Source of the DNA: Deltaproteobacteria bacterium
Lineage (GTDB): Bacteria; Desulfobacterota; Desulfobulbia; Desulfobulbales; SURF-16
Assembly (NCBI GenBank): GCA_029933005.1
Contig: JAOZOY010000002.1
Span: 22,694-86,693, forward strand
Length of the DNA stretch: 64,000 nt
Reading direction: 5' to 3'
Of this stretch, positions 8,529 to 62,146 are shown piece by piece (positions within the stretch are counted from its first letter, which is position 1; every line of letters begins with the position of its first letter). The position numbers were made by a program, and so were the translations under genes. The notes under the pieces are model-generated. The model searched no databases. It saw only the letters and a program-made list of their open reading frames with translations, and was not told the DNA's origin.

Positions 8529-8568
8529 GATGCTTTCTCCCCTGTTTGGTGAAAGATGAAGGAAAAAT

Positions 8569-8677
8569 GTAACTATTCAGCTGCACTTCATCTACGCATG
8601 AGCAGGCAGTCTTAATATAGCACCAGTATGCTGCGCCAGTCTGCTTGCACGTATTTAAAGCACATCTGAATAGTTAG
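8569..8677. mobile_element. hairpin MITE copy A4 in the fliD-fliC spacer
   Basis: Termini are GTAACTATTCAG and CTGAATAGTTAG. A perfect 8-bp direct repeat GGAAAAAT sits at 8561-8568 and 8678-8685. Apex is ATATAGCACCAGTATGCTGCG. Confidence 0.75.
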
Positions 8678-8726
8678 GGAAAAATTAAACGTCCTCCCCT
8701 GGCGAGAAGGGCGTTTGGTTTTATTG

Positions 8727-10181
8727 TTACTGCAGCAGGGACAGTACGTTCTGCTGAACAGCATTGGACTGGGCCATGGCGAATGAACCGGCCTGGGCCA
8801 GGATTTGGTATTTGGCAAAGGTCGCGCTTTCTTCGGCAAAGTCAACGTCGCGAATCGCGGATTCGGCTGCGTAGATGTTAACTCGGGTAACTGAAATATT
8901 TCGTACGGTGGACTCGATTTGATTTTGAGAAGAACCGAGACCGGAACGAATGGTACCCAATTGTGCAAGAGCATGATCTGCTTTTCTGATCGACAACTCA
9001 GCTGCATCGCGAGTAGTTACGTCTACGGATGCCAAGGAATTTCCTGTTGTGATTGTTCCGTCAGTAAGACCTGCGACATCTGATGCCGTTCCGGCAATAA
9101 TGATGGCTTTGTCGGATTCGAGAGTGATAACGCCTTGATTCTGGATAGCTAATGCCCCAGCTGAAGCATCATTAACAGAAGCATTTGTTATGCCGAGTGA
9201 TGTAGCATCTCCCGCAGCCAAGGCTCCAGTGCCATCGGCGGCTGAGCTTAAATAAATATTTTGGCCATCTTCAGAAGAAAACTCAATCTTGCCGCCTTCG
9301 ACAACGGAAGCTGAGACGCCTGTTTGGTCAGAAATTTTATTTACCGCTGCAACCAGTGTGCCGGTTGAGTCTTGGGCGCTGAAGGTAACATCTCCAAGAT
9401 CGATACCATTAATATAGACATCCCCGGCCGAAAAGGTGCCGCCTGCAATATCTGCGGCTCCGACAACACTCGTAGAAGCGGTTGCGGTAACTCCAGTCTG
9501 TGACTGCACTGAGTTGACGGCATTCATTTTTACCCATGCGGAATCAAGCTCTTGAGCCAGCGCGTTATCTGTTCCTACAACTCCGGCACCAGTGTCAACA
9601 CCATTAATCGTAAGTGCCCCGGAGATTAAGTCAGTGGTTGTTACAGTAGTGCCGGTCTCATAGGCAAATTTGCCCATTGCGTTTGTTCTGGCACTGTCAA
9701 TAGAAACAGAAACCGTTTCGTTAGCGTAGGCGCCGACATGAAAATTCTTATCGACGTATGAACCGTCAAGAAGATTTAAGCCGTTAAATGCAGTGGTTTT
9801 TGCGATGTTGTCGGCTTGTTCTATTAATTTTGAAATATCAGCCTGAATTGCAAGCCGAGACGTTGTGTTCTGGCCGTCAGATGAGGCCTGGATGGATTTG
9901 GTGCGGACGGTGTTGATAATATTAATGTATTCTTCCAGTGCGCCGTCCGCCACCTGGACCACGGCAATACCATCATTGCCATTTTTAATCGCTTGTCCAA
10001 GGCCAAGGGCCTGTGCTTTGAGTGAGTCGGCAATGGCCATGCCTGATGCATCGTCGGCAGCCCTGTTGATTCGCAGGCCTGATGATAATCTCTCAAGCGA
10101 TCTGCTCAACTTACTATCGGTGTTGATCATGTTTTTATGTGCATTCAACGCCGAAATATTGGTGTTTATTCTAAGACTCAT
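8727..10181 (-). CDS. fliC: flagellin
   Basis: Conserved N-terminus (MSLRINTNISALNAHKNM) and C-terminus (QILAQAGSFAMAQSNAVQQNVLSLLQ). ATG at 10181 is preceded by GGAGG. The 35-codon upstream extension in the ORF track is not flagellin-like. Confidence 0.9.
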   Translation of the reverse strand: MSLRINTNISALNAHKNMINTDSKLSRSLERLSSGLRINRAADDASGMAIADSLKAQALGLGQAIKNGNDGIAVVQVADGALEEYINIINTVRTKSIQASSDGQNTTSRLAIQADISKLIEQADNIAKTTAFNGLNLLDGSYVDKNFHVGAYANETVSVSIDSARTNAMGKFAYETGTTVTTTDLISGALTINGVDTGAGVVGTDNALAQELDSAWVKMNAVNSVQSQTGVTATASTSVVGAADIAGGTFSAGDVYINGIDLGDVTFSAQDSTGTLVAAVNKISDQTGVSASVVEGGKIEFSSEDGQNIYLSSAADGTGALAAGDATSLGITNASVNDASAGALAIQNQGVITLESDKAIIIAGTASDVAGLTDGTITTGNSLASVDVTTRDAAELSIRKADHALAQLGTIRSGLGSSQNQIESTVRNISVTRVNIYAAESAIRDVDFAEESATFAKYQILAQAGSFAMAQSNAVQQNVLSLLQ

Positions 10182-15703: not shown

Positions 15704-17122
15704 ATGGATGCTCTCAAAAAGACGCAACGAGTCATGATTGTCGATGATGAGCCGGATATGCTCAATATGATCCAGCTTATTCTCAAACGTAAATTTGATT
15801 GCGAAATTGTGCTGGCCGGTTCCGGTGAGGAAGGCCTGCGACAGCTTGAAAAATATCAGCCAGATGTCATTGTCAGTGACATCAAGATGGCGGATCTTGA
15901 CGGTCTTACTCTTCTTAAATTGGTCAGGGAGTTTGATGAAACCATTTCCGTTGTGCTCATGACAGGATACGGAACCATTGAAATGGCGGTTCAGGCTCTG
16001 AGGGACGGTGCCTATGATTTTCTGGAAAAACCGTTTGATAAAGACTATCTGATTCGGATTATCTCTCATTGTCTGGAGCGAACCCGGCTTCTACGCGACA
16101 ATCAAAATCTTCAGGATAAGCTGAGTGATTGCGCATTGCCCCATGGTTTCATCGGTCAGTCACCCCGTTTACGCGCAACCCTTGATCTGATTTCCAGAGT
16201 GGCGAATACCGATGTCACGGTTTTGATTCGCGGTGAGTCCGGCACCGGAAAGGAGGGCGCGGCCAGGGCTCTGCACGAAATGAGTGACCGGCGGGACCGG
16301 AAGATGGTGACCGTCAACTGTCCCGCTCTTCCCGAGCATATTTTGGAAAGTGAACTTTTCGGCTATGTCAAAGGCGCTTTTACCGGGGCCGTAAAAGACA
16401 AAAAAGGTCTATTTTTGGAGGCCCACGGGTCAACGATTTTACTTGATGAGGTCGCTGATATTCCACTTTCAATTCAAACCAAGTTATTGCGGGTTCTCCA
16501 GGAAAAGGAAATTCAACCCCTGGGACAGAATGATTGCCTGAAGGTCGATGTCAGGGTGGTCGCTCTGACGAATCAGGATATTGAAGCAATGATTGCGGCT
16601 GGACAGTTCCGGGAAGACCTTTTTTATCGCCTTAATGTGGTGACTGTAACCATGCCCTCACTTGAGGCAATGCAGGAGGATATCCCGCTTTTGGCCCATC
16701 ATTTCCTGGAACGCTATAGAAAAAAATATAAGCGCCTGGATTTGGAGTTAACGGATGATGCCATGGGATATCTTGTGAAAAGAAAGTGGCCGGGCAATGT
16801 CAGGGAGTTACAGAATATTTTGAAAAGGGGGGTTCTTCTCTGTTCTTCAAATAAAATTGCAGCAGTTGATCTTGGCGCTAATGGCAATGATGTAGAGGAA
16901 AAAAAGCCCTGTCTTGATCAGTCCCGTTTGCTTGATATGTCATACAGTGGCGCTAAAAATGAAGTTCTCAAACTGTTTACCACCAAGTATTTAAGTGAAA
17001 TTTTAACAAAAAATAAAGGGAATGTCACGGCCTCGGCTAAACAAAGCGGTCTTGAAAGACAATCTTTTCAGCGGATTATGCGTCGTTATAATATTCTTTC
17101 AGCAGATTTTAAAAAAACGTAA
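15704..17122 (+). CDS. sigma-54-dependent response regulator (NtrC/Fis family enhancer-binding protein)
   Basis: REC domain (VMIVDDE...SDIKMADLDG), then AAA+ domain with GESGTGKE and the GAFTGA loop, then a C-terminal Fis-type HTH. Confidence 0.9.
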   Translation: MDALKKTQRVMIVDDEPDMLNMIQLILKRKFDCEIVLAGSGEEGLRQLEKYQPDVIVSDIKMADLDGLTLLKLVREFDETISVVLMTGYGTIEMAVQALRDGAYDFLEKPFDKDYLIRIISHCLERTRLLRDNQNLQDKLSDCALPHGFIGQSPRLRATLDLISRVANTDVTVLIRGESGTGKEGAARALHEMSDRRDRKMVTVNCPALPEHILESELFGYVKGAFTGAVKDKKGLFLEAHGSTILLDEVADIPLSIQTKLLRVLQEKEIQPLGQNDCLKVDVRVVALTNQDIEAMIAAGQFREDLFYRLNVVTVTMPSLEAMQEDIPLLAHHFLERYRKKYKRLDLELTDDAMGYLVKRKWPGNVRELQNILKRGVLLCSSNKIAAVDLGANGNDVEEKKPCLDQSRLLDMSYSGAKNEVLKLFTTKYLSEILTKNKGNVTASAKQSGLERQSFQRIMRRYNILSADFKKT

Positions 17123-17194
17123 CTATTCTGCAAGACAACCAGGCCTGGAAGATCCAGGCATTTATATGAAAGTCTTTCGCGGAGGCATTGAGTT

Positions 17195-17237
17195 TACAGA
17201 GTTTTTCTTTCTTCGTCTCTGCGCCTTGTGAGAGATT
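17195..17237. repeat. short hairpin repeat, family D copy 1
   Basis: ACAGAG-ttttt..-CGTCTCTGCGCCTTGTGAGAGATT. Related to 43005-43043 and 59535-59594. Confidence 0.4.
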
Positions 17238-18279
17238 ATTTTTCGTTTTTTATTGTGCCGTTTCGCTGTCAAAAGTTTTCAATCCAGAACTCTGTTTTTT
17301 GTTATAAAGAGGATATGGTGCATCTTTTATGTTGCTGTTTGTCTGCAAATAAGGACTTTATATTGTCAGCTTGAAAGAAACTTGTTTCTTTTTTTTTAAA
17401 TTTTATTGTCAGTTTGTATTATTAATTTTCTCAAAAAACATCGATTGAAGGATGATGGCTTGATGCGATTTTTCCTTCAGTCATGAGCCTTCAGTCTTGA
17501 TGATGTCACTTTGCCCTTAACAGTTTTTCACTGCGTCCGGCTTTTTTTCAGGAAATAAAAATAGAGAATGCGTTTCAATCAACATTTCAATTAATGATTT
17601 ATCTGTCCCAGTTGCTGTTTTTTGATTGTGTTCTGCAGCAGATTTGTTGCACTTGTTGGACTTCATCTCTGTCTGTGGGTTGAAGAGTTGCACGGTTTTT
17701 TAAATATGCCGGCAGTTTTGCGTTCGCGAATCTCGGGGTGACATCAATTATTAATGTTTTGAATTAGTCATTTTACCCTATCACCTCAATTAGTTAAAGG
17801 CTATTAGCAGACAAAGCGAATTTCTTAGATTGACAGCTATAGTTTTGCCCCCGAAGGATCTCTTGTTCCTGGCATAGTCCTGCAAATTGCAGGTTTTTCA
17901 TTTTGAGTCAGTCATAAGGCATGATCCATAAGCCGTCAGAACAGTTGCGTAACCGATCACGGCTAAAAACTCCAAATATCATGTTGCCCCCTATAGTGAT
18001 CTATTACCAGCGGCCTTGGTTTTAAAGTATTTGTCCCATTTCTGAACAGCTGGAATTTTGCACAAAATATCAAATAATTTAATCGGCTAAAAAAGACAGG
18101 AGTTATTTGACAGGCAGTGAAAGGGTGAAACATTTCAGTTGCAGTTTGGGTCAAAAAACAAGCAAAAAGGGTGATTGAAACATTTAAAGGAGAATTTTAA
18201 ACTGCACAATGATTGGTTAACAAGTTTAACTTATTGAATTAATGACATTTTTTTGGTAATTAGAATTGTTGTCGTTATG

Positions 18280-18296
18280 CTGGTATGAGTTTTGCT
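18280..18296 (+). promoter_or_regulatory. sigma-54 (-24/-12) promoter upstream of the 18326 sensor operon
   Basis: CTGGTATGAGTTTTGCT, with GG at 18282-83 and GC at 18294-95 separated by exactly 10 nt, and the TTGC -12 element intact. It lies 30 nt upstream of ATG 18326. Confidence 0.5.
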
Positions 18297-18325
18297 GATT
18301 CTCTGTAATGGAGCTATAGAAGACA

Positions 18326-27078: not shown

Positions 27079-27191
27079 AACTAGAATTATTAATTCCCTG
27101 TCCCGGCAGAAGGCAATGAAGCTTTCTGCCGGGGTAACCGTTCATCGGGAGCGACAGGTGAACGCTTACCTGTCGGGAATCATGGAGAAGA

Positions 27192-27809
27192 ATGGATATG
27201 GATGAGTTCATGGACGCCTTATTGGACAATATATTGATCATGGTTCAATATGGAGCGTCGTTGTTTGACCGTCTACTTACGCCGCTTCATGTCTTCGGCC
27301 CTCTTGTTGTTATGACTTTGCTTGCTATTATGACTGTTGCGGTCACTAAACTGCTGAACAGAATCATTATCACCAAGCGTTACACCCGGTTGGAAGAAGA
27401 ATTTCAGCACTGGTTCAAAGTTCGCCAGGAAGCCATGAAATATGAGGATTATGATAAGGCAAAACGGCTGGCCAGAAATATCGATCAGGCGAAATTAAAC
27501 CAGGTCTACTATGATTATTTTTTAGAAGGATTCCTGCTGGGACTCATGCGCAATGTCCTGCCGATCTTTCTTGTCTGCACCTATATTAATAAATTTTATC
27601 GTGCCGAGGAACTCAGTCGTTTATTCGGCAAGGCATATATGCTCAGCATCCCGTCAACCAGTGGTGAACCGATCCTGATCGGGGCGGTATTTTATTATAT
27701 TATCACCCTGTTGCTATCTTACCTGGCATGGTTTATAATCAAAAAAATGGTCACTAAGAAAGTCAGTAGTCCAAAATCACTGGAATCTGTAACAGCGGAT
27801 CTTGCCTGA
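27192..27809 (+). CDS. three-TM membrane protein with EMC3/TMCO1 (DUF106)-like layout
   Basis: TM1, then a charged coiled coil (RLEEEFQHWFKVRQEAMKYEDYDKAKRLARNIDQAKL), then TM2 (LPIFLVCTYINKFY), a short beta-like segment, and TM3 ending in a basic tail. The family call is from pattern memory. Confidence 0.5.
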   Translation: MDMDEFMDALLDNILIMVQYGASLFDRLLTPLHVFGPLVVMTLLAIMTVAVTKLLNRIIITKRYTRLEEEFQHWFKVRQEAMKYEDYDKAKRLARNIDQAKLNQVYYDYFLEGFLLGLMRNVLPIFLVCTYINKFYRAEELSRLFGKAYMLSIPSTSGEPILIGAVFYYIITLLLSYLAWFIIKKMVTKKVSSPKSLESVTADLA

Positions 27810-27869: not shown

Positions 27870-30341
27870 ATGTTACTCAATACACTTTTCAAGCATTGGT
27901 CGTACCGGTTATTTGCTCCGGGAACGATTATGCGTGAAAAGTACGAGGCGTTTAAACTCCTGCTGCACTACGATGTGCTTTGCCATGAGCAGATGGCGGA
28001 GATTCAGGATCTTTTTTATGGTGATCACCATGAGGATCTCTGCCGCATTCGTAAGCGTTTCACCCTTTTTTCCGAGCAGGTTGCCGGCATGATAGCCAGT
28101 CTCGAAACAATGGCTCCGGTAACCTATGTATCTCTTAAGGAGTATCATAAAAAATTTAATTTCTATATATGTTTTTTGCTGGCATCACCTGAAATTGATT
28201 TCTCACCTCCCTTTGTAGTTCCCCTTGCCAAAATAAATCCAGCCAACAAAAATATCGGCAATAAGGCAAAGAATCTCGCTATTCTGAAAAATGAACTTGG
28301 CGCTCCTGTGCCTCATGGTTTTGCGGTGACAGCCAATGCTTTTCATTATCTTCTCGAATACAACAATCTGCGTGGAGAAATTGATGATTTGCTCTCGGAA
28401 CTTAATATCGACTCATCCCACTCCCTGAACGTGATTTCCGGACAGTTACAAAAGCATATCCGAACAGCTGAGATGGTGCCGGACATCGAGATGGCCATGT
28501 ATGCCGCTTATGATGATCTGGAACAGGCGGTAAGCAGGCCGCTGACCATTGCTGTCCGCAGCAGTGCAATCAGTGAAGATGGCGAGTGTTCTTTTGCCGG
28601 TCAGTATGAAAGTATCCTTGGTGTAACCAAAGAAAAACTTATTGGAGCTTATCTGGAGGTAATGGCCTCAAAATATTCTCCTACTGCTCTTTGTTATCGT
28701 ATCAGAAACGGTTTGAGCGATGAAGAAACAGCCATGTCCGTGCTGATGTTGGAAATGGTTTCGGCAAAAAGTAGTGGCGTTCTCTATACCCGTGCTCCGC
28801 TGCAGGAAGCCGGGGAGAGCGATAAGCTTCAACTCCACGTTATCCGCGGATTTGGTGAAGCCTTGGTTGGTGGCGCAGCAATACCTGATCAGTATGTTAT
28901 GACAAGGGAGGAACATCCCAGGATTCTGAGCAGGAAGGAGCAGCACTCAGTTATTACGGAAAAACAGGTAGAGGTTATTGGCCGCTGGGGAATGAATATT
29001 GAAAAGTATTTTCAAACTACCCAGGATATTGAGTGGGCAATCGATACTGACGATAATCTTTATTTTTTGCAATCCAGACCTTTGCATATTTCCGCAGTAA
29101 TGGAAGCTCCCCGGAAAGCGACGGGAGAGGAGGAAAATCTTGTTGTTTTACTTGATGGTTGTGAAAGGGCGGCAGGCGGCGTTGCTGCCGGAGCGGTTTA
29201 CAGGCTTGATGACAACCATAAGCTGGAAGATATTCCCCTCGGAGCTGTGCTTGTAACCCGTAATACACCGCCAAGCTATGTACAGGTTATCAATCGGCTT
29301 GCTGCAGTCATTGCCGAGCGAGGTAGTCGGGCAAGCCATTTTGCCACTGTGGCCCGCGAATTTGGTGTGCCTTTCCTGGCGGGAACCGGCAGTGCCGCGC
29401 AATCCTTCGTACATGACAGCCAGATAACGGTTGACGGGGATCAGGGTGCAGTTTACCAGGGGAAAATCGAATCATTGATCCGTAAGGATACTGATCATTT
29501 AGAAAAAGACAGGTACTATCGAACCCTTAAAGAGGTTTTAAATTTTATTACGCCCCTTGAGCTTGTTGATCCGGCAGGGAAAAATTTTACGCCGGAAGGC
29601 TGCCGTTCCATGCACGATATTATCCGATTTTGTCACGAAAAGGCGGTGCAGGCGATGTTTTCTTCGGCCAGGCCGGGATCGGGACGCGGATCCTTGAAAC
29701 TGGTCGCTGATGTGCCCCTTGATGTGTTTTTATTTGATGTGGGGGGCGGAATTACTGCAGGGATACAGGAGGGAGGTTCCGTGCCGCTTGCCGGAATCAC
29801 ATCCGTGCCCTTTCAAGCTTTGTGGCGAGGTCTTGGCCACCCTGATGTGCAGTGGAAGCAGAAACCATTTGACTGGGATGCCTATGACAAGGTTGAACTG
29901 GCCGGCGGCATACCACCGGCTCGAGACAGCTTCGCCTTTTCAAGTTACGCCGTGATCGGTTTTGATTATCTCCATTTTAATATTCGTTTTGGCTATCATT
30001 TTACCATTGTCGATGTCCTATGCGGCAAAAATTCTGCGGAAAATCATTGCATGCTGCGTTTTGCCGGCGGAGGCGGCGATTTTGGTCATCGTTCGTTGAG
30101 AATAGATTTTATTACACGCATTCTTGAGCAGCTTGAATTTACAGTGGAAAAAAAGGGGGATATGCTTGAAGCTCGGCTTTCGAGCATGGAGAGCAGGGTT
30201 ATGCAGCATAAACTCGATATGCTTGGGCGTCTGCTTGGAGCTACCAAGTTGATGGACATGGTTCTTGAAGACGAGCAGATGGTGTCCCAGTGTGTTGATG
30301 ATTTTTTCAGTGGCCGTTATTCTTTTTCCCAGGAAGGGTGA
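27870..30341 (+). CDS. PEP/pyruvate-binding (PpsA-like) phosphotransferase family protein
   Basis: ATP-grasp PPDK_N-type region (GNKAKNL...VAVRSSA..ED...SFAGQ) and a swivel phospho-His domain (ERGSRASHFATVAREFGVPF). The C-terminal ~280 aa did not match the canonical PEP-binding barrel motifs I know. Confidence 0.8.
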   Translation: MLLNTLFKHWSYRLFAPGTIMREKYEAFKLLLHYDVLCHEQMAEIQDLFYGDHHEDLCRIRKRFTLFSEQVAGMIASLETMAPVTYVSLKEYHKKFNFYICFLLASPEIDFSPPFVVPLAKINPANKNIGNKAKNLAILKNELGAPVPHGFAVTANAFHYLLEYNNLRGEIDDLLSELNIDSSHSLNVISGQLQKHIRTAEMVPDIEMAMYAAYDDLEQAVSRPLTIAVRSSAISEDGECSFAGQYESILGVTKEKLIGAYLEVMASKYSPTALCYRIRNGLSDEETAMSVLMLEMVSAKSSGVLYTRAPLQEAGESDKLQLHVIRGFGEALVGGAAIPDQYVMTREEHPRILSRKEQHSVITEKQVEVIGRWGMNIEKYFQTTQDIEWAIDTDDNLYFLQSRPLHISAVMEAPRKATGEEENLVVLLDGCERAAGGVAAGAVYRLDDNHKLEDIPLGAVLVTRNTPPSYVQVINRLAAVIAERGSRASHFATVAREFGVPFLAGTGSAAQSFVHDSQITVDGDQGAVYQGKIESLIRKDTDHLEKDRYYRTLKEVLNFITPLELVDPAGKNFTPEGCRSMHDIIRFCHEKAVQAMFSSARPGSGRGSLKLVADVPLDVFLFDVGGGITAGIQEGGSVPLAGITSVPFQALWRGLGHPDVQWKQKPFDWDAYDKVELAGGIPPARDSFAFSSYAVIGFDYLHFNIRFGYHFTIVDVLCGKNSAENHCMLRFAGGGGDFGHRSLRIDFITRILEQLEFTVEKKGDMLEARLSSMESRVMQHKLDMLGRLLGATKLMDMVLEDEQMVSQCVDDFFSGRYSFSQEG

Positions 30342-30461
30342 AAATTGATGAAACGAATTTTGTAACTGTTCAGGTAGGACTATCAGCTACCATTAAACTT
30401 GTGACTCTGTATGGGGTGATCGATTCAAAATAAGAAGTCTTGTTTTGGGCGCAGGTTTTTA

Positions 30462-30491
30462 GGCCCGTCTCAAATTGAGGCGGGCTTTTTT
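30462..30491 (+). terminator. rho-independent terminator after the PpsA-like gene
   Basis: GGCCCGTCTC-aaatt-GAGGCGGGC followed by T6. Confidence 0.7.
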
Positions 30492-30568
30492 GTGGCCTAA
30501 AAATTTTAACTTTTTAACCTAACTTTGTGCGAATAATTCTCAAAGATTGCGTAACTATCTAATTTTTT

Positions 30569-30725
30569 GTATACGTTCACCTGCACCTCACGGAGTCTAC
30601 GCTTACCTGACCTGCTCGAATAGCACCAGTATGCTTCGCTAGCCTGAAAGAAGGAATCTAAGGCACTGGTAAACGTTTACAAGGGCTGTGTTTCCCATAA
30701 ATTAGTGACCCCGGTGAACGGTTAC
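30569..30725. mobile_element. hairpin MITE copy A2
   Basis: Collinear with A1 (GTATACGTTCACC...GGTGAACGGTTAC), but with a deletion of about 19 nt in the 3' arm. No intact flanking duplication (AATTTTTT upstream, AGTGCAAG downstream). Confidence 0.65.
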
Positions 30726-30932
30726 AGTGCAAGAATGGCAACACGGTTCATGTCAGAAAAAGTACACGAACCAACCAAAGCAACAGGAGATATATTCTGC
30801 CCTGAGAGTACAGAATCATCCCGGTCAGACGATAAAGACGACAATATGAAACAAAATGAAAGATGTAGTGCCATAACGACACCTGCTGACAGCGTAACTT
30901 GCTGTTATTACTGAAATTCGTAATCTGAAGCC

Positions 30933-31085
30933 ATAAATATTCGGCTTGTGTGAAAAAGTTTCAAAAAACTCGGCCTGTAAATGTTTGGATAGTGCCCAAG
31001 TTCGTTCAAGTCGCCTTGCGAGCTATATTAGTCATATGTGAGTAAGGCGAATCGGACGAAATTTGGGTGCTAGCCGAATATTTAC
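30933..31085. mobile_element. hairpin MITE copy B2
   Basis: Termini are ATAAATATTCGGC and GCCGAATATTTAC. Flanks are CTGAAGCC and CTAAAGCC (7/8); similarity continues into ...CCATAAA, so the boundary is ambiguous. Apex is CTATATTAGTCATATGTGAG. Confidence 0.65.
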
Positions 31086-31455
31086 CTAAAGCCATAAAGT
31101 TAGGTTAAGGGAGCATCAAAGTTTGGCAATGAAATTTCTGGATTTTACTTATCACCTGAAGAGTTCAGACAAAAAGCCGCCGGGAGAGATGCAACTTTAT
31201 GTGAAAAAAATAATGCAGCAAATAGGACGCGTTATTTTTATCGTATTTTCAATAGGTTGTCGGTTGGAGATGTTTTTATTTGTTTTTGTCAAGCAACATT
31301 TGAGATGCGCTTATTCAGTGTCTCAGGAAAAAAAGAGGATGTGGAAAAATAAGGTTTGTTTGTTGAATTTGGATAGAAGAATTAACCTATTGTTTTTATT
31401 TAAAATTTAAGATAATTACAATAAAAATTTATTTTAAAGTCTATTAAGTCGGGAT

Positions 31456-31471
31456 TGGCATGATATCTGCG
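31456..31471 (+). promoter_or_regulatory. sigma-54 (-24/-12) promoter with no downstream ORF
   Basis: TGGCATGATATCTGCG: GG at 31457-58 and GC at 31469-70 are separated by exactly 10 nt, and 13 of the 15 defined positions of TGGCAC-N5-TTGC fit. Confidence 0.45.
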
Positions 31472-31482
31472 ATCAATGATCA

Positions 31483-31657
31483 ATAGAATGTAGAAAGACG
31501 CTGAGATAATGTTTTTTCCTCCTTGTTAAAACTCTTGTCTTCCTCCATTCTCCATGGTCCTGAGACGTGAGGGGCAGTTGTTGTATATTGTAGTTCTTTT
31601 GAAGCGTGGTTCATCTTTTGGCATTTCTTTGAAATACCCCTCACGTCTTATTTTTTG
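31483..31657 (+). ncRNA. candidate sigma-54-dependent sRNA (unit 1)
   Basis: Lies between the sigma-54 promoter and a 12-bp perfect stem (AGACGTGAGGGG 31563-74 / CCCCTCACGTCT 31637-48) followed by TATTTTTT. Contains no ORF. Contains the CU-rich stretches UUUUCCUCCUUG and CUUCCUCCAUUCUCC. Confidence 0.35.
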
Positions 31658-31715
31658 AATATCAAAGATATACCGCAGATTTGAGTTCAAGTTCTTTTAC
31701 AGGATAAATTCTACG

Positions 31716-31803
31716 ATTTTTTTGGGTGAACGGTCATGTTCCTCCTTGCCTGGGATCTCTCTCTCTCATGCCTTGCAAGATGACCGTTTGCCTGAATTTT
31801 TTT
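31716..31803 (+). ncRNA. candidate sRNA (unit 2) sharing the UUCCUCCUUG seed
   Basis: A 17-bp stem (31721-37 / 31780-96) includes 4 G-U pairs that can form only in the plus-strand RNA, followed immediately by T7. The loop carries GUUCCUCCUUGCC. A possible TTGAGT-N17-ATAAAT promoter lies at 31681-31709 (weak). Confidence 0.3.
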
Positions 31804-31990
31804 GAGCCCTCTCTTTTTTTCTGCTTTCTTTCCTACCGTATCACAATTTTCTAATGTCAATTTAGTCAGTTATCTTGTCACTATTTGAGTTCCCGTGTGA
31901 ATTCCAATTATAGTGAAGTTAAACAAATTCCTGGGAACTGGTACATAGTTATGAACATTATTTGTAACTGTTCAATAAATGGTGGCAATC

Positions 31991-32030
31991 AAAAAACAAA
32001 TCCCCCTCAATACCCTTTTTTTAAGGGGGA
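31991..32030 (-). terminator. rho-independent terminator ending the minus-strand signalling operon
   Basis: On the minus strand: UCCCCCU-loop-AGGGGGA followed by UUUGUUUUUU. Confidence 0.7.
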
Positions 32031-32046
32031 AGTTGTCGCTACGCTG

Positions 32047-32229
32047 TCAGCGGCCATCTAAAACCAGCACTTCCCCAACCATCTGAAATTGTCTATTTTT
32101 TTCTTCTGTTGTTGAGGTTTTCTTTCGATCTTCTTCCATTTTGAGTCGATCATCAGTCATGGAGGTTGTGACTGATGGACCCAAAAAACTCAAAGAGTAA
32201 CATACGCCACCACTTATTGAAGTTACCAT
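32047..32229 (-). CDS. possible 60-aa protein translationally coupled to the upstream HD-GYP gene
   Basis: The ATG overlaps the HD-GYP stop (TAATG), and the ORF ends just before the operon terminator. No similarity recognised; composition is low-complexity. Confidence 0.3.
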   Translation of the reverse strand: MVTSISGGVCYSLSFLGPSVTTSMTDDRLKMEEDRKKTSTTEEKNRQFQMVGEVLVLDGR

Positions 32230-34109
32230 TATTTCACAAATCTAAAGAGTTTTTTTCTCTGAGTTTTCGCGGTATCCGTGATAGGCGTTTTTTTCAATGA
32301 ATGTTGGCTTGCCGTGGATCGTAAGTTTGGATAATCCGTAAAGAGGTGTCTGTCTTTCAGTTTTTTCCAATCCATGAAATTCGGGGAAGATAGGGCAAGA
32401 GGTTTTTTGTCTTCATATGTTTTTTTAATTTTTTGAAATTCTTTTTCTCTGGCAAGAAAGGCTTCAACAACGTCAGGATCAAAATGTCTGCCCTTTTCTT
32501 CAACAATAACCGCTAATGCTTTCTGGTGGGAAAAGGATTCCTTGTAAGTCCGTTTAGAAGTCAGGGCATCATAGACGTCGGCGAGGGAAACGATTCTTGA
32601 TGATAATGGAATTTCTTCTCCATTCAGACCTTGGGGATAGCCGGAGCCATCCCATTTTTCATGATGGAAATAGGCGATTGTTTTGCCCATGGTCAGAAAT
32701 GACGGGCCGGGAACCTGTCCCTCAATCGCCTTTATAGTGTCGCCGCCAAGCAGGGTATGCTGTTGAATGATTTCAATTTCATCGGGAGTTAATCGGTCCG
32801 CTTTTAACAGGAGATTATCCGGGATGCCGACTTTGCCGATATCATGAAGAATGGAAGACATGTAAATATCTTCAATAAACCGAGTTGAAATATAATCATG
32901 ATATTTTGGCTTTAAGGCCAGTTCCGTGGCGAGTATGCGGCAGAATTCCCTGATTCTCTCCAGATGGTTACCGGAGTTGATATCACGGTATTCCGCCAGG
33001 TTGGCCAAGGAAAGAATTGTTGCGGAGCGGGTTTCCTGCACCCTTGTAAAGGATGCCAGTAACTCTGTTTCCAGCTTTTTTCTGTCTGTGATATCCCTGA
33101 CCAGCATCTGGTATCCAACCAGTGCTTGATCCTTATAAATAGTTGTGGCATTACATTCGACATCAATGATCTGTTTCTGCTTGTTGATGAATCTGAATTG
33201 CAGCCCAGTGACGTTTCGGCCGTCCTGTAACTGTTGTAGAAGAGAGCGCAGCACAGTCTCCTGGTCATCCGGATGGACAAATTCTAGAATGAGATCCCCC
33301 GCTTTTTCATGAGCCGGATCTCCCATGGTTTCGTAGAAACGGGGATTGGCCATGACAATTTTGCCGTCGCGGTCCGTGAGGATGACATCATCACTGATGT
33401 TTTCGTACAGCTTTTGGTAGCGAATTTCAGATTTTTTCAGTTCTTTCGTTCTGTTGGCAACCTCTTCCTCAAGATGATCCGCATGGTAGGAAAGTTGAGC
33501 GGCAAGAGCGTCCTCCTTCATTCGCATATTAAATTCTCTTTTTCTGGCTCGGGACTCTTCCAGGCATTTGACAATAATGATAAGAAGAAAAGAGACGAAG
33601 AAAAAAGTGTTATTGAAAAGTATTTTTAGGTTTGAAGGTGTGAGCTGGTTGTAAATAAAAATCGGTGCCAGGTAAAAAGAATAGACCAGAATCCCTGTTC
33701 CAGCAGCTTGGTATGGATTTAAGGGTAAAATAACGGCACAGACAACAAGAACCATGACCATCCCGATATAATATGAAGAGGTAATACCGCCAAGTTTGAT
33801 GATCATGATTGATATTGTCAGTGCCGAGATAGCATAGGCTGTTATGGCAGTGGAAAAGGGTTGTCTGCGCGAGAAGGAGGTTCTGTTTGCGATATAAATA
33901 CCAAGAAGCGAGAGAGAACACAGAATTCGCAGGATGAAAAAAGACGTGAAGAGTGAGGGGGCTACAACATAATCAAGAATGGAAAAACAAGGAAAGAGAA
34001 AAGCCCCGAACAGAACAGTGGTATTGATTCGTTGATGGAGGAGGGTTCGGGTTTCCTCCTGGTATTTCTGTAGATTGGCGGAAGAGATTTTTTCCATGAT
34101 CAGTCGCAA
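32229..34109 (-). CDS. membrane (6-TM) PAS-domain HD-GYP phosphodiesterase, copy 1
   Basis: N-terminal 6 hydrophobic helices, a coiled coil, a PAS domain, then HDIGKVGIPD ... HHEKWDGSGYPQGL (HD-GYP). Confidence 0.85.
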   Translation of the reverse strand: MRLIMEKISSANLQKYQEETRTLLHQRINTTVLFGAFLFPCFSILDYVVAPSLFTSFFILRILCSLSLLGIYIANRTSFSRRQPFSTAITAYAISALTISIMIIKLGGITSSYYIGMVMVLVVCAVILPLNPYQAAGTGILVYSFYLAPIFIYNQLTPSNLKILFNNTFFFVSFLLIIIVKCLEESRARKREFNMRMKEDALAAQLSYHADHLEEEVANRTKELKKSEIRYQKLYENISDDVILTDRDGKIVMANPRFYETMGDPAHEKAGDLILEFVHPDDQETVLRSLLQQLQDGRNVTGLQFRFINKQKQIIDVECNATTIYKDQALVGYQMLVRDITDRKKLETELLASFTRVQETRSATILSLANLAEYRDINSGNHLERIREFCRILATELALKPKYHDYISTRFIEDIYMSSILHDIGKVGIPDNLLLKADRLTPDEIEIIQQHTLLGGDTIKAIEGQVPGPSFLTMGKTIAYFHHEKWDGSGYPQGLNGEEIPLSSRIVSLADVYDALTSKRTYKESFSHQKALAVIVEEKGRHFDPDVVEAFLAREKEFQKIKKTYEDKKPLALSSPNFMDWKKLKDRHLFTDYPNLRSTASQHSLKKTPITDTAKTQRKKLFRFVK

Positions 34110-34148
34110 TAGTTCGCCGGGGCAATAAATCTTGGTTAATTCTTACGA

Positions 34149-35711
34149 TCAGTCTGGTCTGACCGCCTTTACGAAGAGATTCACTCCCTGCTTTTCCGAC
34201 AGGATTTCGATCTTGTCGGCAAAAGGGCTTTGGGAAAAGATGGCTGTCAGGTCTTCCCGATTGCGATAATGCAGGCGCCATTGGAGGATATGGTCCATAA
34301 ATGGCTGATCCGGATTAGGAGAGAAGTTGCCGACAATGAGAACGCCTCCTGGTTTTAATTGATGATAGCAGCGGGTAATAAAGGCGACAAAGAGTTTATC
34401 TTCCAAATAATCGGTCAAGCCGGCTGAATAGATAATATCCTGCAGACGCATATTATGATTGACCCTTCCCAGAGACCATTTAACCAGATTTTCATTCATC
34501 AGACGGATAGAGGCATTGTGGGGAAAGGTGTTCACATGCTTATTGGTGTATTGCAGAGCCTCTGAGTCAATATCAATGCAGAGTGCCTCGATGGCTTCAG
34601 TGTAGTCGCATTGTCTTAAAAAATCGAAGAGTTCCTGGTTTGGTCCGCAGGCAAGATTCATAATATTGATGATATGGCCTTTTTTGTATTTTTTGTTGCT
34701 GATTTCGGCCAGCTGTCTGCTTAGCAGTTTTCTCCTGCCGCGGATTGCCTTGGAGCCAATGGAATTGAGACACCACTCATCGACAATCACACCGAGTTTC
34801 CCATCTCCGGCCGGTTTGTTCTGGTAAATTTTTTCGATCATCAGGAAGTCACCGGCATAACCTTTGGGCTTGAAATAGACCCGTTCGGCAAAACGACTTC
34901 GCATAAAATAAGGATAAATCTCCTTGAACAGGTAGCCCCAGGCGTAATTTTCCTCATCAAGGTTTTGAATTTCCTTTTTCAGGTTGAGTATCTGGACATA
35001 AAACTGATTCAGGATATTGAGGCACTGCTCCCGGACCTCTTCAGCAATGGCGGTGGATGAGTCTTCCTGCAACCGGTAGGAGATGTTGTACATTTTTCCT
35101 TTGAAATCTTCAACGATTCGATTGACGGAACGCCAGGCCGCTGTTTCGAAAAATTTTTCCGGTAAGGGAGCCGAGTCTTCGTATTTGTCTTTTTTCCTGG
35201 TTGACAGCGAGGCCCCATAAGCCCTGAGAGGTTCCCGCTCTTCCAGAATACGACGGAATTTGATGCAGATTCCCCGGGTGAGCAGATCAAGAAAATAGCC
35301 GTAAAGTAGCGGATTTTCTTTCTGCATGCATTTCATGGTTGATTGATCGAAAACCCTGATTTCGGCATCTTCCGTTATTCGAATGTCACGAACCCGTGAT
35401 CCGCCGTCAAAATAGCCGATTTCACCGAAAAAGTTTCCGGAGCCGATCAGGGCAACGGTTATTTTCGTGTCATGGGCCGTATGGGAAACCTCAATGGAAC
35501 CTTTTTTGACATAATAAAAGGCAGGTTTTTCCGAGTTTTTGGGACGGAATTCCTCTCCAGTCAGAAAGAACAGTGTCCTTGAAAAAGGCAGAACCTCTTC
35601 AACGAGTTGGTCAGGCAGACCTCTCAGAAAATTCAACTCACCGCTACTGGACATTGTTTTATTATTGATTCTATCTTTCTGCGCCGTTTGCATGAAAAAC
35701 TCCTTTGCCAT
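34149..35711 (-). CDS. cyclic-nucleotide-binding domain / class I SAM methyltransferase fusion, copy 1
   Basis: CAP_ED-type motif FFGEIGYFDGGSRVRDIRI near the N-terminus. The C-terminal half has MTase motif I (INIMNLACGPNQEL) and a post-I acidic residue (CIDID). Its start abuts the stop of the upstream HD-GYP gene (35711/35712). Confidence 0.8.
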   Translation of the reverse strand: MAKEFFMQTAQKDRINNKTMSSSGELNFLRGLPDQLVEEVLPFSRTLFFLTGEEFRPKNSEKPAFYYVKKGSIEVSHTAHDTKITVALIGSGNFFGEIGYFDGGSRVRDIRITEDAEIRVFDQSTMKCMQKENPLLYGYFLDLLTRGICIKFRRILEEREPLRAYGASLSTRKKDKYEDSAPLPEKFFETAAWRSVNRIVEDFKGKMYNISYRLQEDSSTAIAEEVREQCLNILNQFYVQILNLKKEIQNLDEENYAWGYLFKEIYPYFMRSRFAERVYFKPKGYAGDFLMIEKIYQNKPAGDGKLGVIVDEWCLNSIGSKAIRGRRKLLSRQLAEISNKKYKKGHIINIMNLACGPNQELFDFLRQCDYTEAIEALCIDIDSEALQYTNKHVNTFPHNASIRLMNENLVKWSLGRVNHNMRLQDIIYSAGLTDYLEDKLFVAFITRCYHQLKPGGVLIVGNFSPNPDQPFMDHILQWRLHYRNREDLTAIFSQSPFADKIEILSEKQGVNLFVKAVRPD

Positions 35712-37436
35712 CTACTGGACAAGAATAGACATCCTGGTTTTTTTGAAGACATGCTCCTGAACTGCAAAGGCTTCCACCACGGCGGGAGCAAAATGTTTTC
35801 CTTTTTCGGCGAAAATGATTTTCCTGGCCTCTTCATGGGTCATGGAGGGTTTGTAACATCTTTTTGATGTCAGGGCGTCATAAACATCGGCCAAGGAGAC
35901 AATGGCTGCGGATAAGGGAATTTCACCGTTTTTCAGTCCCTGGGGATATCCGCTGCCATCCCATCTTTCATGGTGATAATAGGCCACCTCTCTGCCGATG
36001 GTTAAAAATGTCTTCCCTTTTATTCGAGATTCAAGATCACTGAGGGCATCACCGCCGATAATGGAATGAAATTTCATGATGTTGAATTCTTCCGGGGTGA
36101 GTTTGTCGGGTTTGAGAAGGATCGCATCCGGAATGCCTACTTTGCCGATATCATGCAAAATGGAAGAAAGATAAAGATCATCAGTATAATCCTGATTGAT
36201 GATATTAGCATATTCCGGGTATCCAGCCAGTTCTTCACAGATAATCCTGGTGTATTCCCGGATTCTTTCGAGGTGATTTCCAGTCTCATGATCCCGTGAC
36301 TCCACAAGTTTTGCCAGACCGAATATCGCGGCTGTTCTGGAGGTGTTGATCTCTTCTTGGGAGCGAACAAGCTCGGATTTCATTTTGTTTCTTCTGGTAA
36401 TATCTCTGGCCACTAATTGATAACCGATAAATTGTCCGTCTTTGTTAATTGTTTTGGCATTACATTCAATGTCCGCCTTTTTCAGGTTCCCGTTCAACAT
36501 TTTAAACTGAAAATCTTTGATATCCTGGCCTGACATCAGACCGGCCAACAGGTCCTGTTTTACCCTGGCAACATCTTCATCATCAACGAAATCAAAAAAA
36601 GATACACCTGCGACATCTTCACGTCTTTTTTTAAGAAAATTATAAAAATGGGGGTTAGCCATAAGTATTGTCCCATCATGATCCAGCAGAATGACAGGAT
36701 CCAGAATATTATCATACAGTTTTTTGTAGCGCAGTTCGGATTCTTCGATTTCCTTAAGCTGTTTTTCAACCTCTTCTTCCAGGTGATGCGTGTAATAAGA
36801 TAACTCCCCGGTCAGCTTTTTGAGCTTTATTTTTAGATTAAATTCTCTCACCCGTCCTTTGAGCTCTTCATGGCACTGGACAATACCAATCATGGCAAAT
36901 GCAAAAAGAAAAAAAGTATTGTTGAAGAAAGTATTAAAATTTTCAGGGCTGGTTTTTAAAAAAGTAAACGGATCGAGATAGCAGGGAACGGTATAGATGA
37001 GCAGAAGAATAATTCCTGAAAAAATTGCCTGGAAAAAATGAAGCGGCAGGATGGCAAAATAGCCCACCAGGATAAGGAGCGGGCCGGCATAATAAAAATG
37101 TCCGCTATGGCCGATTTTGAGGATCATCAGGACAAGGATAAAGCTGCCAATCGCGCAGAATGTGATGGCAATGAGAAAGGAAGAAATTAGTTTTTTATGA
37201 TGCAGCAGAAGAAAGCCGGCCATAAGTAATGAAAAAAAGATGCGATATTGAGCAAAGAGAATAAAATGTTCTCTGGCCATGACAAAGTCAAGAATGGAAA
37301 AAAACGGAAAGAAAACAATGCCAAGCCAGAGCAGGGCCGTAACTCTTTGACGAAGGAGATCTTCAGTCTCTTTTGTAAAGAGTTTCAGATGTTTTTTTTC
37401 AATGCCCAGGGAAGGGGCTGACCAGGATAGGTTCAT
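35712..37436 (-). CDS. membrane (6-TM) PAS-domain HD-GYP phosphodiesterase, copy 2
   Basis: Same architecture as 32229..34109: HDIGKVGIPD ... HHERWDGSGYPQGL. Confidence 0.85.
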   Translation of the reverse strand: MNLSWSAPSLGIEKKHLKLFTKETEDLLRQRVTALLWLGIVFFPFFSILDFVMAREHFILFAQYRIFFSLLMAGFLLLHHKKLISSFLIAITFCAIGSFILVLMILKIGHSGHFYYAGPLLILVGYFAILPLHFFQAIFSGIILLLIYTVPCYLDPFTFLKTSPENFNTFFNNTFFLFAFAMIGIVQCHEELKGRVREFNLKIKLKKLTGELSYYTHHLEEEVEKQLKEIEESELRYKKLYDNILDPVILLDHDGTILMANPHFYNFLKKRREDVAGVSFFDFVDDEDVARVKQDLLAGLMSGQDIKDFQFKMLNGNLKKADIECNAKTINKDGQFIGYQLVARDITRRNKMKSELVRSQEEINTSRTAAIFGLAKLVESRDHETGNHLERIREYTRIICEELAGYPEYANIINQDYTDDLYLSSILHDIGKVGIPDAILLKPDKLTPEEFNIMKFHSIIGGDALSDLESRIKGKTFLTIGREVAYYHHERWDGSGYPQGLKNGEIPLSAAIVSLADVYDALTSKRCYKPSMTHEEARKIIFAEKGKHFAPAVVEAFAVQEHVFKKTRMSILVQ

Positions 37437-37564
37437 GTAATGCGCTTATCGGGTAACAGAATATTTATCAATTTTGTCTGCATTTTTTGGTAACCATTCA
37501 GAATGCAGATTTTAAAAACTAATAGTCTTTAGTCTACAGCCTAACCACCTGAATAGTAAGCATT

Positions 37565-39121
37565 TTATTTAGTGGCCAGAGCAAAAAGGTTCACCTGTTC
37601 AGGTTCGGAGATGATTTGGACATTTTTGCCAAAGGGAGTGTTTAAAAAAAGTTCTCTTAATTCGTCTTCGGTTCGGTAGATCAGTTTCCAGTTCAGGATA
37701 TGATCCATGAAGTACTGGTCGACACAAGGAGCAAAGTTGCCAATCACCAGTTGACCTCCCGGTTTCAAGTGCTCATGACATCGGCTGACAAGGGCCTGGA
37801 ATAGTTTTCGGTCCAGGTAGTCGCTGAGTCCGGCTGAATAGATGATGTTCTGCATGCCGATGTTGTGGCTCACTTTTCCCAAGGCCCATTTGACCAGGTT
37901 TTCGTTCATGAACCGGATTGAAGCCATGTGGGGAAAGGTGTTGACATGTTGATTGGTGTATTGCAGAGCCTCGGAATCAATGTCTACACAGAGGGCCTCA
38001 ATTTTTTCGCTGTAATCACAATTTGATAGAAAATCAAACAGTTCCCGGTTTGGTCCACAGGCAAGGTTCATGATTTGAATTGTATCGCCCTTCGCTAGCT
38101 TTTGGCGGCTGATTGTTTCCAACTGGCCGCATAACAGTTTACGGCGTCCTCGTATTGCCTTTGTGCCGGGTCGCTGGAGACACCAGGCATCGACGAGTTT
38201 GCCGATTTTCCCCTCGCCTTCCGGTTGATTCAAGTAGATATGCTCCATCATCAGAAAATCACCGGCATATCCTTTTGGCTTGTAATAGGCTCTTGCTGCA
38301 AATCGGCTACGCATGATAAAGGGAAAAGCTTCTTTAAAGAGATACCCCCACAACACGTTTTTATCTTCAGGGCGTTTCAGGAGGTTTTGGAAATTACCAA
38401 GATTGTCGCTGAAATCGTCCAGTATGGAGTAGCATTCCGAACGGTGATCCTCGGAGATTTCCGGGGTTGAATCTTTTTGCAGGGCATAAGAGAGGTCAAA
38501 GATACGGGATTTTATTTTTTCAATATGTTGATTGATCAAATGCCATTCATCGGATTGCAGTAATGTCTTCGGTATGGGTTTTGACTCTGTATAATTCCGG
38601 CTCCGGCGCGGTGCCGAAAGAGAGGCGGCATAGCTGGCCAGGGGATCCCGTTCTTCCAGGACGCGGCGGAATTTTTTGCAGATGGATCGGGCTAGATAAC
38701 TGATGAAATTGCCATAAAGAACAGGATCCTGCTCTTGAAGATCAAGCAAGGAATTTTCGCTGAATACTCTGATGTTGGAATCCTGAACGGCTTTAATGTC
38801 ACGAACCCGGGAGCCGCCGTCAAAAAAACCAATTTCTCCAAAAAATTGCCCGGCGCCGATTAGAGCTACGGTAATTTTTGTCCCCTTGTCGGTATATGAG
38901 ACTTCTATCGCGCCTTTGAGGACATAATAGATTGATCTCTGTTCTTCTCCATGCAGTTCCAGGGGATCATTTTTGCGACAGAAAATTTCTGTAGAAAAAG
39001 GGAGAATACTCCGTATGGTTTTATTTGTAAAAGCCAGGAGTGATCTTTTTGGCTTTGATGTCTGGATTGCTGGCCCCATTTTGTTCCTTTTTCGAGAAAG
39101 ACAGACCCTCTTTTTTATCAT
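37565..39121 (-). CDS. cyclic-nucleotide-binding domain / class I SAM methyltransferase fusion, copy 2
   Basis: Paralogue of 34149..35711 (FFGEIGFFDGGSRVRDIKA; IQIMNLACGPNREL; CVDID). The start could instead be the internal MGPAIQ. Confidence 0.8.
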   Translation of the reverse strand: MIKKRVCLSRKRNKMGPAIQTSKPKRSLLAFTNKTIRSILPFSTEIFCRKNDPLELHGEEQRSIYYVLKGAIEVSYTDKGTKITVALIGAGQFFGEIGFFDGGSRVRDIKAVQDSNIRVFSENSLLDLQEQDPVLYGNFISYLARSICKKFRRVLEERDPLASYAASLSAPRRSRNYTESKPIPKTLLQSDEWHLINQHIEKIKSRIFDLSYALQKDSTPEISEDHRSECYSILDDFSDNLGNFQNLLKRPEDKNVLWGYLFKEAFPFIMRSRFAARAYYKPKGYAGDFLMMEHIYLNQPEGEGKIGKLVDAWCLQRPGTKAIRGRRKLLCGQLETISRQKLAKGDTIQIMNLACGPNRELFDFLSNCDYSEKIEALCVDIDSEALQYTNQHVNTFPHMASIRFMNENLVKWALGKVSHNIGMQNIIYSAGLSDYLDRKLFQALVSRCHEHLKPGGQLVIGNFAPCVDQYFMDHILNWKLIYRTEDELRELFLNTPFGKNVQIISEPEQVNLFALATK

Positions 39122-61914: not shown

Positions 61915-62104
61915 AAGTTTTCTTTTAAAAAGAAATAAATCGATCTGGTATGATATATGCTTATATTTGTTAGAGAAACTGGAGTGGCGAGCTGATGAAA
62001 AGTACCGGATTATCGATAATCGTTGTCGCAGACTGCTTTCTTGAGGCGGAGAAGACAATTATGAAATTTAAAACATCCATCACTTTTAGGTTAAAAAAGT
62101 AATA

Positions 62105-62146
62105 AAAAAGTTTCAGCAAATAATTTTTTGCTGAAACTCTTTTTTT
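62105..62146. terminator. bidirectional rho-independent terminator
   Basis: A-run, then AGTTTCAGCAAA-taattt-TTTGCTGAAACT, then a T-run. Confidence 0.75.

Follow-up and report, generated by a model that had tools for sequence, protein, structure and literature searches.

Whether a stretch of intergenic DNA with a σ54-type promoter motif at one end and a terminator-like hairpin at the other encodes a small RNA (sRNA) is the question raised by the locus described here. It lies on contig JAOZOY010000002.1 (assembly GCA_029933005.1) of a Deltaproteobacteria bacterium, within the window, i.e. the whole stretch of 64,000 nt that was analysed, where the candidate RNA unit sits between two convergent genes that are 1.9 kb apart. 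The first-pass annotation of this DNA had proposed an orphan σ54 promoter driving an sRNA. We have now found that two sharply bounded blocks in the gap are constrained more strongly than the neighbouring conserved enzyme gene. A functional plus-strand RNA is probably made from the region. The full statement, according to which this RNA would also depend on σ54 and act by base-pairing, is evenly balanced between right and wrong, judged from the features of the sequence.

In the proposed model, positions 31482-31657 would be transcribed into a plus-strand non-coding sRNA of ~176 nt, most likely from the σ54 promoter at 31456-71 when some enhancer-binding protein (EBP) is active, and transcription would end at a GC-rich stem followed by U6. 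The predicted layout comprises a 5' hairpin with UUUUUUCCUCCUUG in its apical loop, a CU-rich single-stranded linker and a large terminator hairpin. The RNA would pair with the Shine-Dalgarno (SD)/start regions of mRNAs and thereby block the initiation of translation. The features on which this model draws are the following.

31456-31471, plus strand: σ54-type motif TGGCATGATATCTGCG, with the −24 GG at 31457-58 and the −12 GC at 31469-70, exactly 10 nt apart
31482-31657, plus strand: unit 1, the predicted primary transcript of ~176 nt, from the predicted start to the U-run
31485-31551, plus strand: 5' hairpin (AGAAUG...CAUUCU) of the predicted fold
31512-25, plus strand: CU-rich tract 1, UUUUUUCCUCCUUG, anti-SD-like, in the apical loop of the 5' hairpin
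31539-53, plus strand: CU-rich tract 2, CUUCCUCCAUUCUCC, seen in the sequence
31539-31562, plus strand: tract 2 plus single-stranded linker, CCAUGGUCC, a candidate seed by the predicted fold and by its complementarity to the ribosome-binding site (RBS) of 27192-27809
31561-31656, plus strand: terminator-like hairpin with U6 at its end; the 14-bp stem includes 12 perfect bp and the 62-nt loop has internal structure, by sequence and fold
31716-31815, plus strand: unit 2, with a 17-bp stem (31721-37/31780-96) whose 4 G.U pairs are valid on the plus strand only
31797-31803, plus strand: U7 of unit 2, whose loop of 42 nt starts with GUUCCUCCUUG, by sequence and fold

Anatomy and conservation of the two units

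The stem arms of unit 1, AGACGTGAGGGG (31563-74) and CCCCTCACGTCT (31637-48), are perfectly complementary, so that the 12-bp stem followed by a T-run noted in the first-pass annotation is indeed there. A G.U and a U-A pair (31561-62/31649-50) lengthen it to 14 bp, and T6 follows directly at 31651-56. Perfect 12-bp inverted repeats within 100 nt were found at five loci in the window against 0.34 expected, and the stem of unit 1 is therefore non-random; three of the five, including that of unit 1, are followed by a T-run. One feature of an intrinsic terminator, a GC-rich stem directly followed by a U-run, is present in both unit 1 (14 bp and U6) and unit 2 (17 bp and U7). The predicted fold of unit 1 has a minimum free energy of −43.5 kcal/mol (z = −3.05).

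The closest relatives of the window are uncultured Desulfobulbaceae/Thermodesulfobacteriota metagenome-assembled genomes (MAGs). One retrievable ortholog, the Desulfobulbaceae-type MAG locus L001, carries the units at the syntenic position, and the identities in this paragraph compare the window with it. The four-fold degenerate sites of the adjacent enzyme gene, 74% identical, were used as the neutral yardstick; the enzyme gene as a whole, like the amino acid sequence of its product, reaches 89%. Identity amounts to 95% for 31485-31562 and to 100% for the two stem arms of unit 1 and its U-run, while the terminator loop shows 82% identity with indels of 1 and 3 nt. Tract 2, the linker and the first stem arm (31539-31574) do not differ at all. 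Unit 2 is 98% identical over ~100 nt and its 42-nt loop 100%. Outside these blocks the values are much lower: 57% for the 13 nt from the −12 element to the predicted start (31472-84) and 53%, with a 21-nt indel, for the stretch between the units. The start predicted from the GC element is ~31482. From the jump in identity at 31485 it follows that the block 31485-31657 starts at +4 of this predicted σ54 start and ends at the U-run. A degenerate, non-conserved spacer, the outcome that would have spoken against the proposed sRNA, is contradicted by 95-100% identity against the neutral 74%. The 5' hairpin differs between the window and L001 by four substitutions, and three of these remodel a single helix segment, GAC/GUC in the window and GGC/GCC in L001.

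The expectation that promoter and terminator are conserved in related genomes was borne out in part. GG and GC, their spacing, the stem arms and the U-run are all kept in L001, but L001 is the sole carrier among the relatives retrieved. A synteny search from the side of the adjacent phosphoenolpyruvate (PEP) enzyme, by contig and by protein, yielded many relatives, with the units in L001 only; L002 has the upstream part but not the units. In relatives further away (≤78% amino acid identity), other genes or no similarity are seen 3' of the PEP enzyme. A metagenome locus, L023, the sole match to both CU tracts, was rejected as a chance match without homology.

Unit 2, which lies 60 nt 3' of unit 1, had been missed by the first-pass annotation. 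The window contains TTCCTCCTTG at just two places, 31516 and 31739, where chance would give 0.34, and the 10-mer UUCCUCCUUG is present in the loops of both units, its second copy opening the 42-nt loop of unit 2. The complete conservation of this loop implies a function beyond termination. No GG-N10-GC was recognised as a promoter of its own for unit 2, and a σ70-like TTGAGT-N18-TAAATT was rejected as it is destroyed by the 21-nt indel of L001 (by eye). Unit 2 would be reached by read-through, giving a ~320-nt isoform, or else would be a sibling RNA.

The strand of the proposed RNA is indicated by several features. U-runs follow both hairpins on the plus strand only, and the G.U pairs of both hairpins become C.A mismatches on the minus strand. 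The folds of unit 1 in the window and in L001 reach −43.5 and −46.5 kcal/mol on the plus strand versus −41.4 and −40.3 kcal/mol on the minus strand; the values for unit 2 are −30.3 versus −20.8 kcal/mol. In agreement with the first-pass annotation, no credible open reading frame (ORF) was found on the plus strand. The only ORF within unit 1 (31554-31658, 34 aa) has no SD, is frameshifted in L001 and was rejected as a gene. A GTG-initiated ORF in unit 2 was also discarded, since it lacks an SD and is more perfectly conserved than a coding sequence would be.

Promoter motif and candidate target

The strict GG-N10-GC spacing is present as described earlier and is also kept in L001, where the motif reads TGGCGTGATATCTGCA (score 13.5 with a position weight matrix, PWM). 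The two motifs are identical at 14 of 16 positions, both changes being non-critical, and in L001 GG and GC are as far from the conserved block as in the window, with divergent flanks on either side. By our binomial estimate, such retention has P ~0.01 against the local 57% identity. The description of the −24 and −12 elements as good holds for the invariant GG and GC and for the PWM rank: with the matrix for σ54 sites, which is our own approximation, 31456-71 ranks second of ~128,000 window positions. To the extended consensus TGGCAC-N5-TTGCW there are two mismatches (TGGCAT and CTGCG), and such sites are no more frequent than by chance. The pattern TGGCAYN5YTGC has one match in the window versus 0.64 expected and at least one in 49 of 100 shuffles, and ~1.4 matches equal to or better than 31456-71 by the PWM are expected in shuffles. 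Because 0.64-1.4 such matches per window are expected by chance, the motif alone is not significant. The support for the putative promoter is positional and comparative, not statistical.

The first-pass annotation had also pointed to the NtrC-type gene of the window. This gene and two other σ54-like sites, both intergenic, correctly oriented and of the TGGYATG type, are as follows.

15704-17122: NtrC-type EBP gene with REC and Sigma54_activat domains (E = 2e-66)
18281-18296, plus strand: σ54-like site TGGTATGAGTTTTGCT, 29 nt before ORF 18326, beside the EBP and kinase genes
61946-62140, plus strand: orphan σ54-like site TGGTATGATATATGCT, with an ORF of 35 aa, MKSTGLSIIVVADCFLEAEKTIMKFKTSITFRLKK, and then a perfect terminator of 12 bp plus T-run behind it

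The two domains confirm that the gene codes for an NtrC-type activator. A link to the site at 31456-71 was not supported: the gene is 14 kb off, no evidence links the two, and the 18281 site is more plausibly its local target. The gene rpoN itself was not seen within the 64-kb window. The EBP gene is followed on its 3' side by a 1.2-kb ORF-poor gap (17123-18325), which ends in the 18281 site; ORF 18326 is in turn followed by a PAS histidine kinase gene. The site at 61946 has a GATAT spacer in common with the motif at 31456-71. Homology of this second orphan unit with unit 1 was considered and rejected, as no sequence similarity was found.

The base-pairing part of the model starts from the two CU-rich tracts, which were found at 31512-25 and 31539-53 as previously described. 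Their proposed role as SD-pairing seeds fits tract 1, which is placed in an apical loop by the predicted fold, better than tract 2. The CCUCCUU core of UUUUUUCCUCCUUG matches the anti-SD core of 16S rRNA (there is no rRNA in the window), and this match suggests occlusion of ribosome-binding sites. A candidate target was found close by.

27173-27200, plus strand: candidate target site at the SD and start of ORF 27192-27809, which encodes 205 aa of unknown function

This ORF lies two genes upstream of the unit in the adjoining operon, which codes for a molybdopterin oxidoreductase, a TauE-like exporter and a PEP-utilising enzyme. The seed part of the RNA proposed to pair with its start region is CCAUUCUCCAUGG. 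In L001, the RNA and the target site have a perfect 15-nt complement and 5 more bp (−34.5 kcal/mol), beyond all 6378 window tiles, and the chance expectation for such a 15-mer in the L001 locus is only ~0.003. The homology stops at the 15-mer itself. When 381 start regions in the window were ranked, z was −3.1 and no single target was statistically singled out. We consider ORF 27192-27809, the best local candidate, to be a lead only.

Alternative explanations

Several observations weigh against a σ54-driven, base-pairing RNA. Besides the chance frequency of the motif, its −12 element reads CTGCG instead of TTGCA, and its retention in L001 is only weakly significant (P ~0.17) by our binomial estimate at the neutral identity of 0.74. 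Upstream of the motif, the search yielded no enhancer, EBP site or dyad, only short patches conserved three ways and a weak IHF-like site (31383-95) kept in L001, and the motif has no EBP gene beside it. A σ70-like pair, ATGATA-N18-TAGAAT (31460-89), overlaps the region. In the predicted fold tract 2 is largely paired with the 5' end of the RNA. The 62-nt loop of the unit 1 terminator is atypical; this loop and the 42-nt loop of unit 2 exceed the 3-8 nt of a terminator loop, and neither hairpin was called by a simple terminator scan. With a single ortholog carrying the unit there is no covariation, and no compensatory pairs were found between the two sequences. Finally, the target match in the window is weakened by a 3-nt insertion and one substitution, which leave 11 bp and, beyond a bulge of 3 nt, another 4-5 bp (−26.8 kcal/mol, about fifth of 6378 tiles).

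The same plus-strand RNA might instead be made without σ54, either from a σ70-type promoter (31460-89 or TACAAT 31417-22) or by processing of the 3' end of a small-ORF mRNA, in which case GG-N10-GC would be fortuitous. Two features upstream bear on this explanation, which we regard as unlikely.

31105-31455, no strand assigned: region common to L001 and L002 that could hold an enhancer, with near-neutral identity (72-80%) and short three-way patches
31129-31410, plus strand: possible small ORF of 93 aa, lineage-specific, directly 5' of the promoter

The chance frequency of the σ54 motif and the σ70-like pair called at 31460-89 are in its favour. In L001, however, this pair reads GTGATA-N19-CAGAAT, which is worse in hexamer and in spacing, and with its −10 hexamer placed within the conserved block the hairpin would lose its 5' arm. 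The other hexamer, TAYAAT at 31417-22 (TACAAT in the window), is kept in L001 (by eye). The small ORF is called as a gene in public data and aligns with L002 without gaps over 71 codons (dN/dS ~0.41), and sRNAs derived from 3' untranslated regions (UTRs) are well documented (PMC9731577). With this possible ORF upstream, the RNA may therefore come from the 3' end of its mRNA. Against this, the L001 version of the ORF is frameshifted and already meets a stop at codon 24, and the low conservation of 31472-84 would be unexpected for part of a functional RNA. Among 1.84 billion representatives, the ORF matched only itself and the L002 copy, and nothing outside the lineage.

It is rather improbable that units 1 and 2 act together as a sponge or decoy which titrates an RNA-binding protein; on the minus strand, the GGA loops would titrate CsrA. 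The identical 10-mer in two loops together with a third tract, CUUCCUCC, would fit such a role, and the fully conserved 42-nt loop of unit 2 exceeds what a short seed needs. Sponge RNAs driven by σ54 do exist, namely CrcZ/CrcY (PMC6292655). No known bacterial CCUCC-specific protein is, however, implicated here, and the 2-3 copies of the motif are fewer than in known sponges. The latter carry 5-20 copies. No Rfam match was obtained for the whole window at gathering thresholds, and with E up to 10 only unrelated families matched 30300-32300, with no Qrr (RF00378), CsrB, RsmY/Z or CrcZ among them. The CsrA variant has the GGA motifs of the minus strand to go on, but this strand shows no terminator and no conserved promoter in addition to the missing Rfam match. 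A related and very speculative idea, drawn from the repeated motif, is that the two units form one σ54-gated ~320-nt RNA whose repeated CCUCCUU loops would compete with the 30S subunit for strong SDs on many mRNAs and so act as a global brake on translation, under signal control and not specific to one gene, with the unit 2 loop adding protein or ligand binding.

The blocks might also be a small-protein gene on the minus strand, with unit 2 as its structured 5' leader and the window copy as a pseudogene. This rival ORF, like the MITE (miniature inverted-repeat transposable element) insertions of the gap and the small ORF at 31129-31410, had been overlooked in the first-pass annotation. The CU tracts read as strong SDs on that strand, and L001 has an intact ORF of 76 aa that spans both units. 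It starts with a perfect AAGGAGG-N4-ATG in the loop of unit 2 and runs as far as the left edge of unit 1, where the edge of conservation coincides with the stop codon of the ORF. The lengths of the indels of 21 and 3 nt are divisible by three, and unit 1 folded as the minus strand reaches z = −4.2. In the window, however, two frameshifts and an in-frame stop interrupt this ORF, and all three breaks recur in L036, an independent Logan assembly with 100% identity to the window over 31058-32045. The substitutions are distributed over its codon positions as 3/7/8, with no excess at the third, and long stretches are free of any synonymous change. The identity of the blocks exceeds the 89% of the enzyme gene. 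No homolog sharing words with the ORF was found among 5.8 billion proteins. The minus strand, moreover, lacks a terminator and loses the G.U pairs. Since it is broken in the window and shows no codon bias, almost no synonymous change and no homolog, the minus-strand ORF was set aside as the main explanation; it is highly unlikely. Read in this way, the conserved blocks are non-coding.

Least probable of all is that no functional RNA is made and that the blocks are conserved DNA, i.e. sites for the binding of proteins or a segment that is mobile or was exchanged in recent times: the gap has received at least two MITE insertions, the contigs of relatives break here and recent transfer would also produce near-identity, but the units are single-copy, nhmmer found no copy beyond the syntenic one in L001, neither terminal inverted repeats nor a target-site duplication mark the block edges, the position is the same between flanks diverging at the neutral rate, and a hairpin plus U-run with conserved arms and a variable loop fits an RNA. 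Further copies of the units were sought in the window, among 36 loci and in sets of plasmid, phage and viral sequences, and none was present. A repeat or mobile element was rejected as the origin of the units on the same grounds; the flanking MITEs, unlike the units, do show multiple copies, terminal repeats and target duplications.

Genomic setting and relation to known systems

Recent insertions make up much of the gap, which at least two MITEs have swollen to 1.9 kb. Its flanking genes and insertions are listed here.

27870-30341, plus strand: PEP/pyruvate-binding enzyme gene, left flank of the gap
30514-31108: MITE-like insertion of 595 bp with 16-nt terminal inverted repeats TTAACCTAACTTTGTG / CATAAAGTTAGGTTAA
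31964-32224: MITE-like insertion of 261 bp with terminal repeats GTAACTGTTCAATAAATGGTGGC and duplicated ATTATTT
34109-32229, minus strand: PAS/HD-GYP gene, right flank of the gap

The 595-bp element is missing from the orthologous site in L001 and L002, and partial copies of it are found in L002 and L030-L034. The 261-bp element is missing in three relatives (L030-L032). Directly after the stop codon of the PEP-enzyme gene, at 30362-30395, there is a 34-bp look-alike of the fused ends of the 261-bp element (GTAACTGTTCA...AGCTACCATTA). A third MITE-like element, with terminal repeats TAGGAGGCTGTCCGAGAATG...CATTCTCGGACAGCCTCCTA, was seen in L001 (~8566-8731) and also in L009; the L001 copy is inserted just 3' of the PEP-enzyme gene, and the element does not occur in the window. 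Independent assemblies of relatives (L001, L002, L024, L025, L027-L032, L036) nearly all stop ~40-220 nt past the genes flanking the gap, at MITE copies, and in the synteny search from the HD-GYP side the contig of every relative stopped 40-215 nt beyond the gene, again at MITE copies. Few orthologous copies of the units are retrievable because the assemblies of relatives break at these repeats, and this fragmentation means that public data hide the intergenic region. To the right of the gap, the minus strand (32229-39121) carries a tandem duplicated gene pair, a PAS/HD-GYP phosphohydrolase followed by a cyclic nucleotide monophosphate-binding Methyltransf_20 protein (622/520 aa and 574/518 aa). 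The two pairs represent a second-messenger signalling cluster adjoining the RNA locus.

If the proposed RNA is confirmed, it will define an sRNA family without an Rfam match in an uncultured Desulfobulbaceae-type lineage and provide a further case of σ54/EBP signalling through RNA in an EBP-rich phylum of sulfate reducers in which very few sRNAs have been characterised. The tandem display of anti-SD motifs in two modules and a candidate target in the adjacent operon make up a directly testable circuit. The gain is incremental, since the concept of a σ54-driven sRNA with an anti-SD seed is already established.

Like the Vibrio Qrr1-5 (controlled by LuxO), Pseudomonas and Azotobacter CrcZ/CrcY (CbrB), enterobacterial GlmY/GlmZ (GlrR) and Dv_sRNA2, the unit is intergenic and ORF-less, and it resembles these σ54/EBP-controlled sRNAs in having GG-N10-GC directly upstream and a Rho-independent terminator at the end, both of which are predictions here. 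The Qrr RNAs are ~100 nt long, and unit 1 with its ~176 nt is longer. It matches neither Qrr nor any other Rfam family in sequence or structure. As in canonical intrinsic terminators, the GC-rich perfect stems of both units are followed at once by U6 or U7; the loop lengths depart from the canonical form. The use of pyrimidine-rich loop seeds for pairing with SDs is also known from RsaE/RoxS of Firmicutes and from the UCCC loops of Staphylococcus aureus RNAIII. These sRNAs with C- or CU-rich seeds are unrelated in sequence and taxon and are controlled by other sigma factors and regulators.

The precedent in a sulfate reducer is Dv_sRNA2 of Desulfovibrio vulgaris, a σ54-dependent sRNA which depends on DVU0679 (PMC3333781). 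Its host, like the organism of the window, belongs to the EBP-rich Desulfobacterota. The gene DVU0679 directly adjoins its sRNA, whereas at the present locus the EBP gene is not adjacent and the control by σ54 is predicted from the sequence. The display of the motif has its closest parallel in rhizobia, where NfeR1/αr14 exposes identical anti-SD motifs in several loops (PMC10746234). As in αr14/NfeR1 and AbcR1/2 (PMC10746234), one and the same anti-SD motif is presented unpaired by several hairpins whose stems show no relationship in sequence, and the predicted action is occlusion of the RBS. The motif is, however, UUCCUCCUUG here and CCUCCUCCC there, the phylum is another one, and there is no homology; NfeR1 moreover has an LsrB-activated promoter without a σ54 signature, unlike unit 1. 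The candidate is best filed as a new lineage-restricted RNA which, while matching none of these systems in sequence or structure, resembles the σ54-dependent sRNAs and the sRNAs with multiple anti-SD motifs in its logic.

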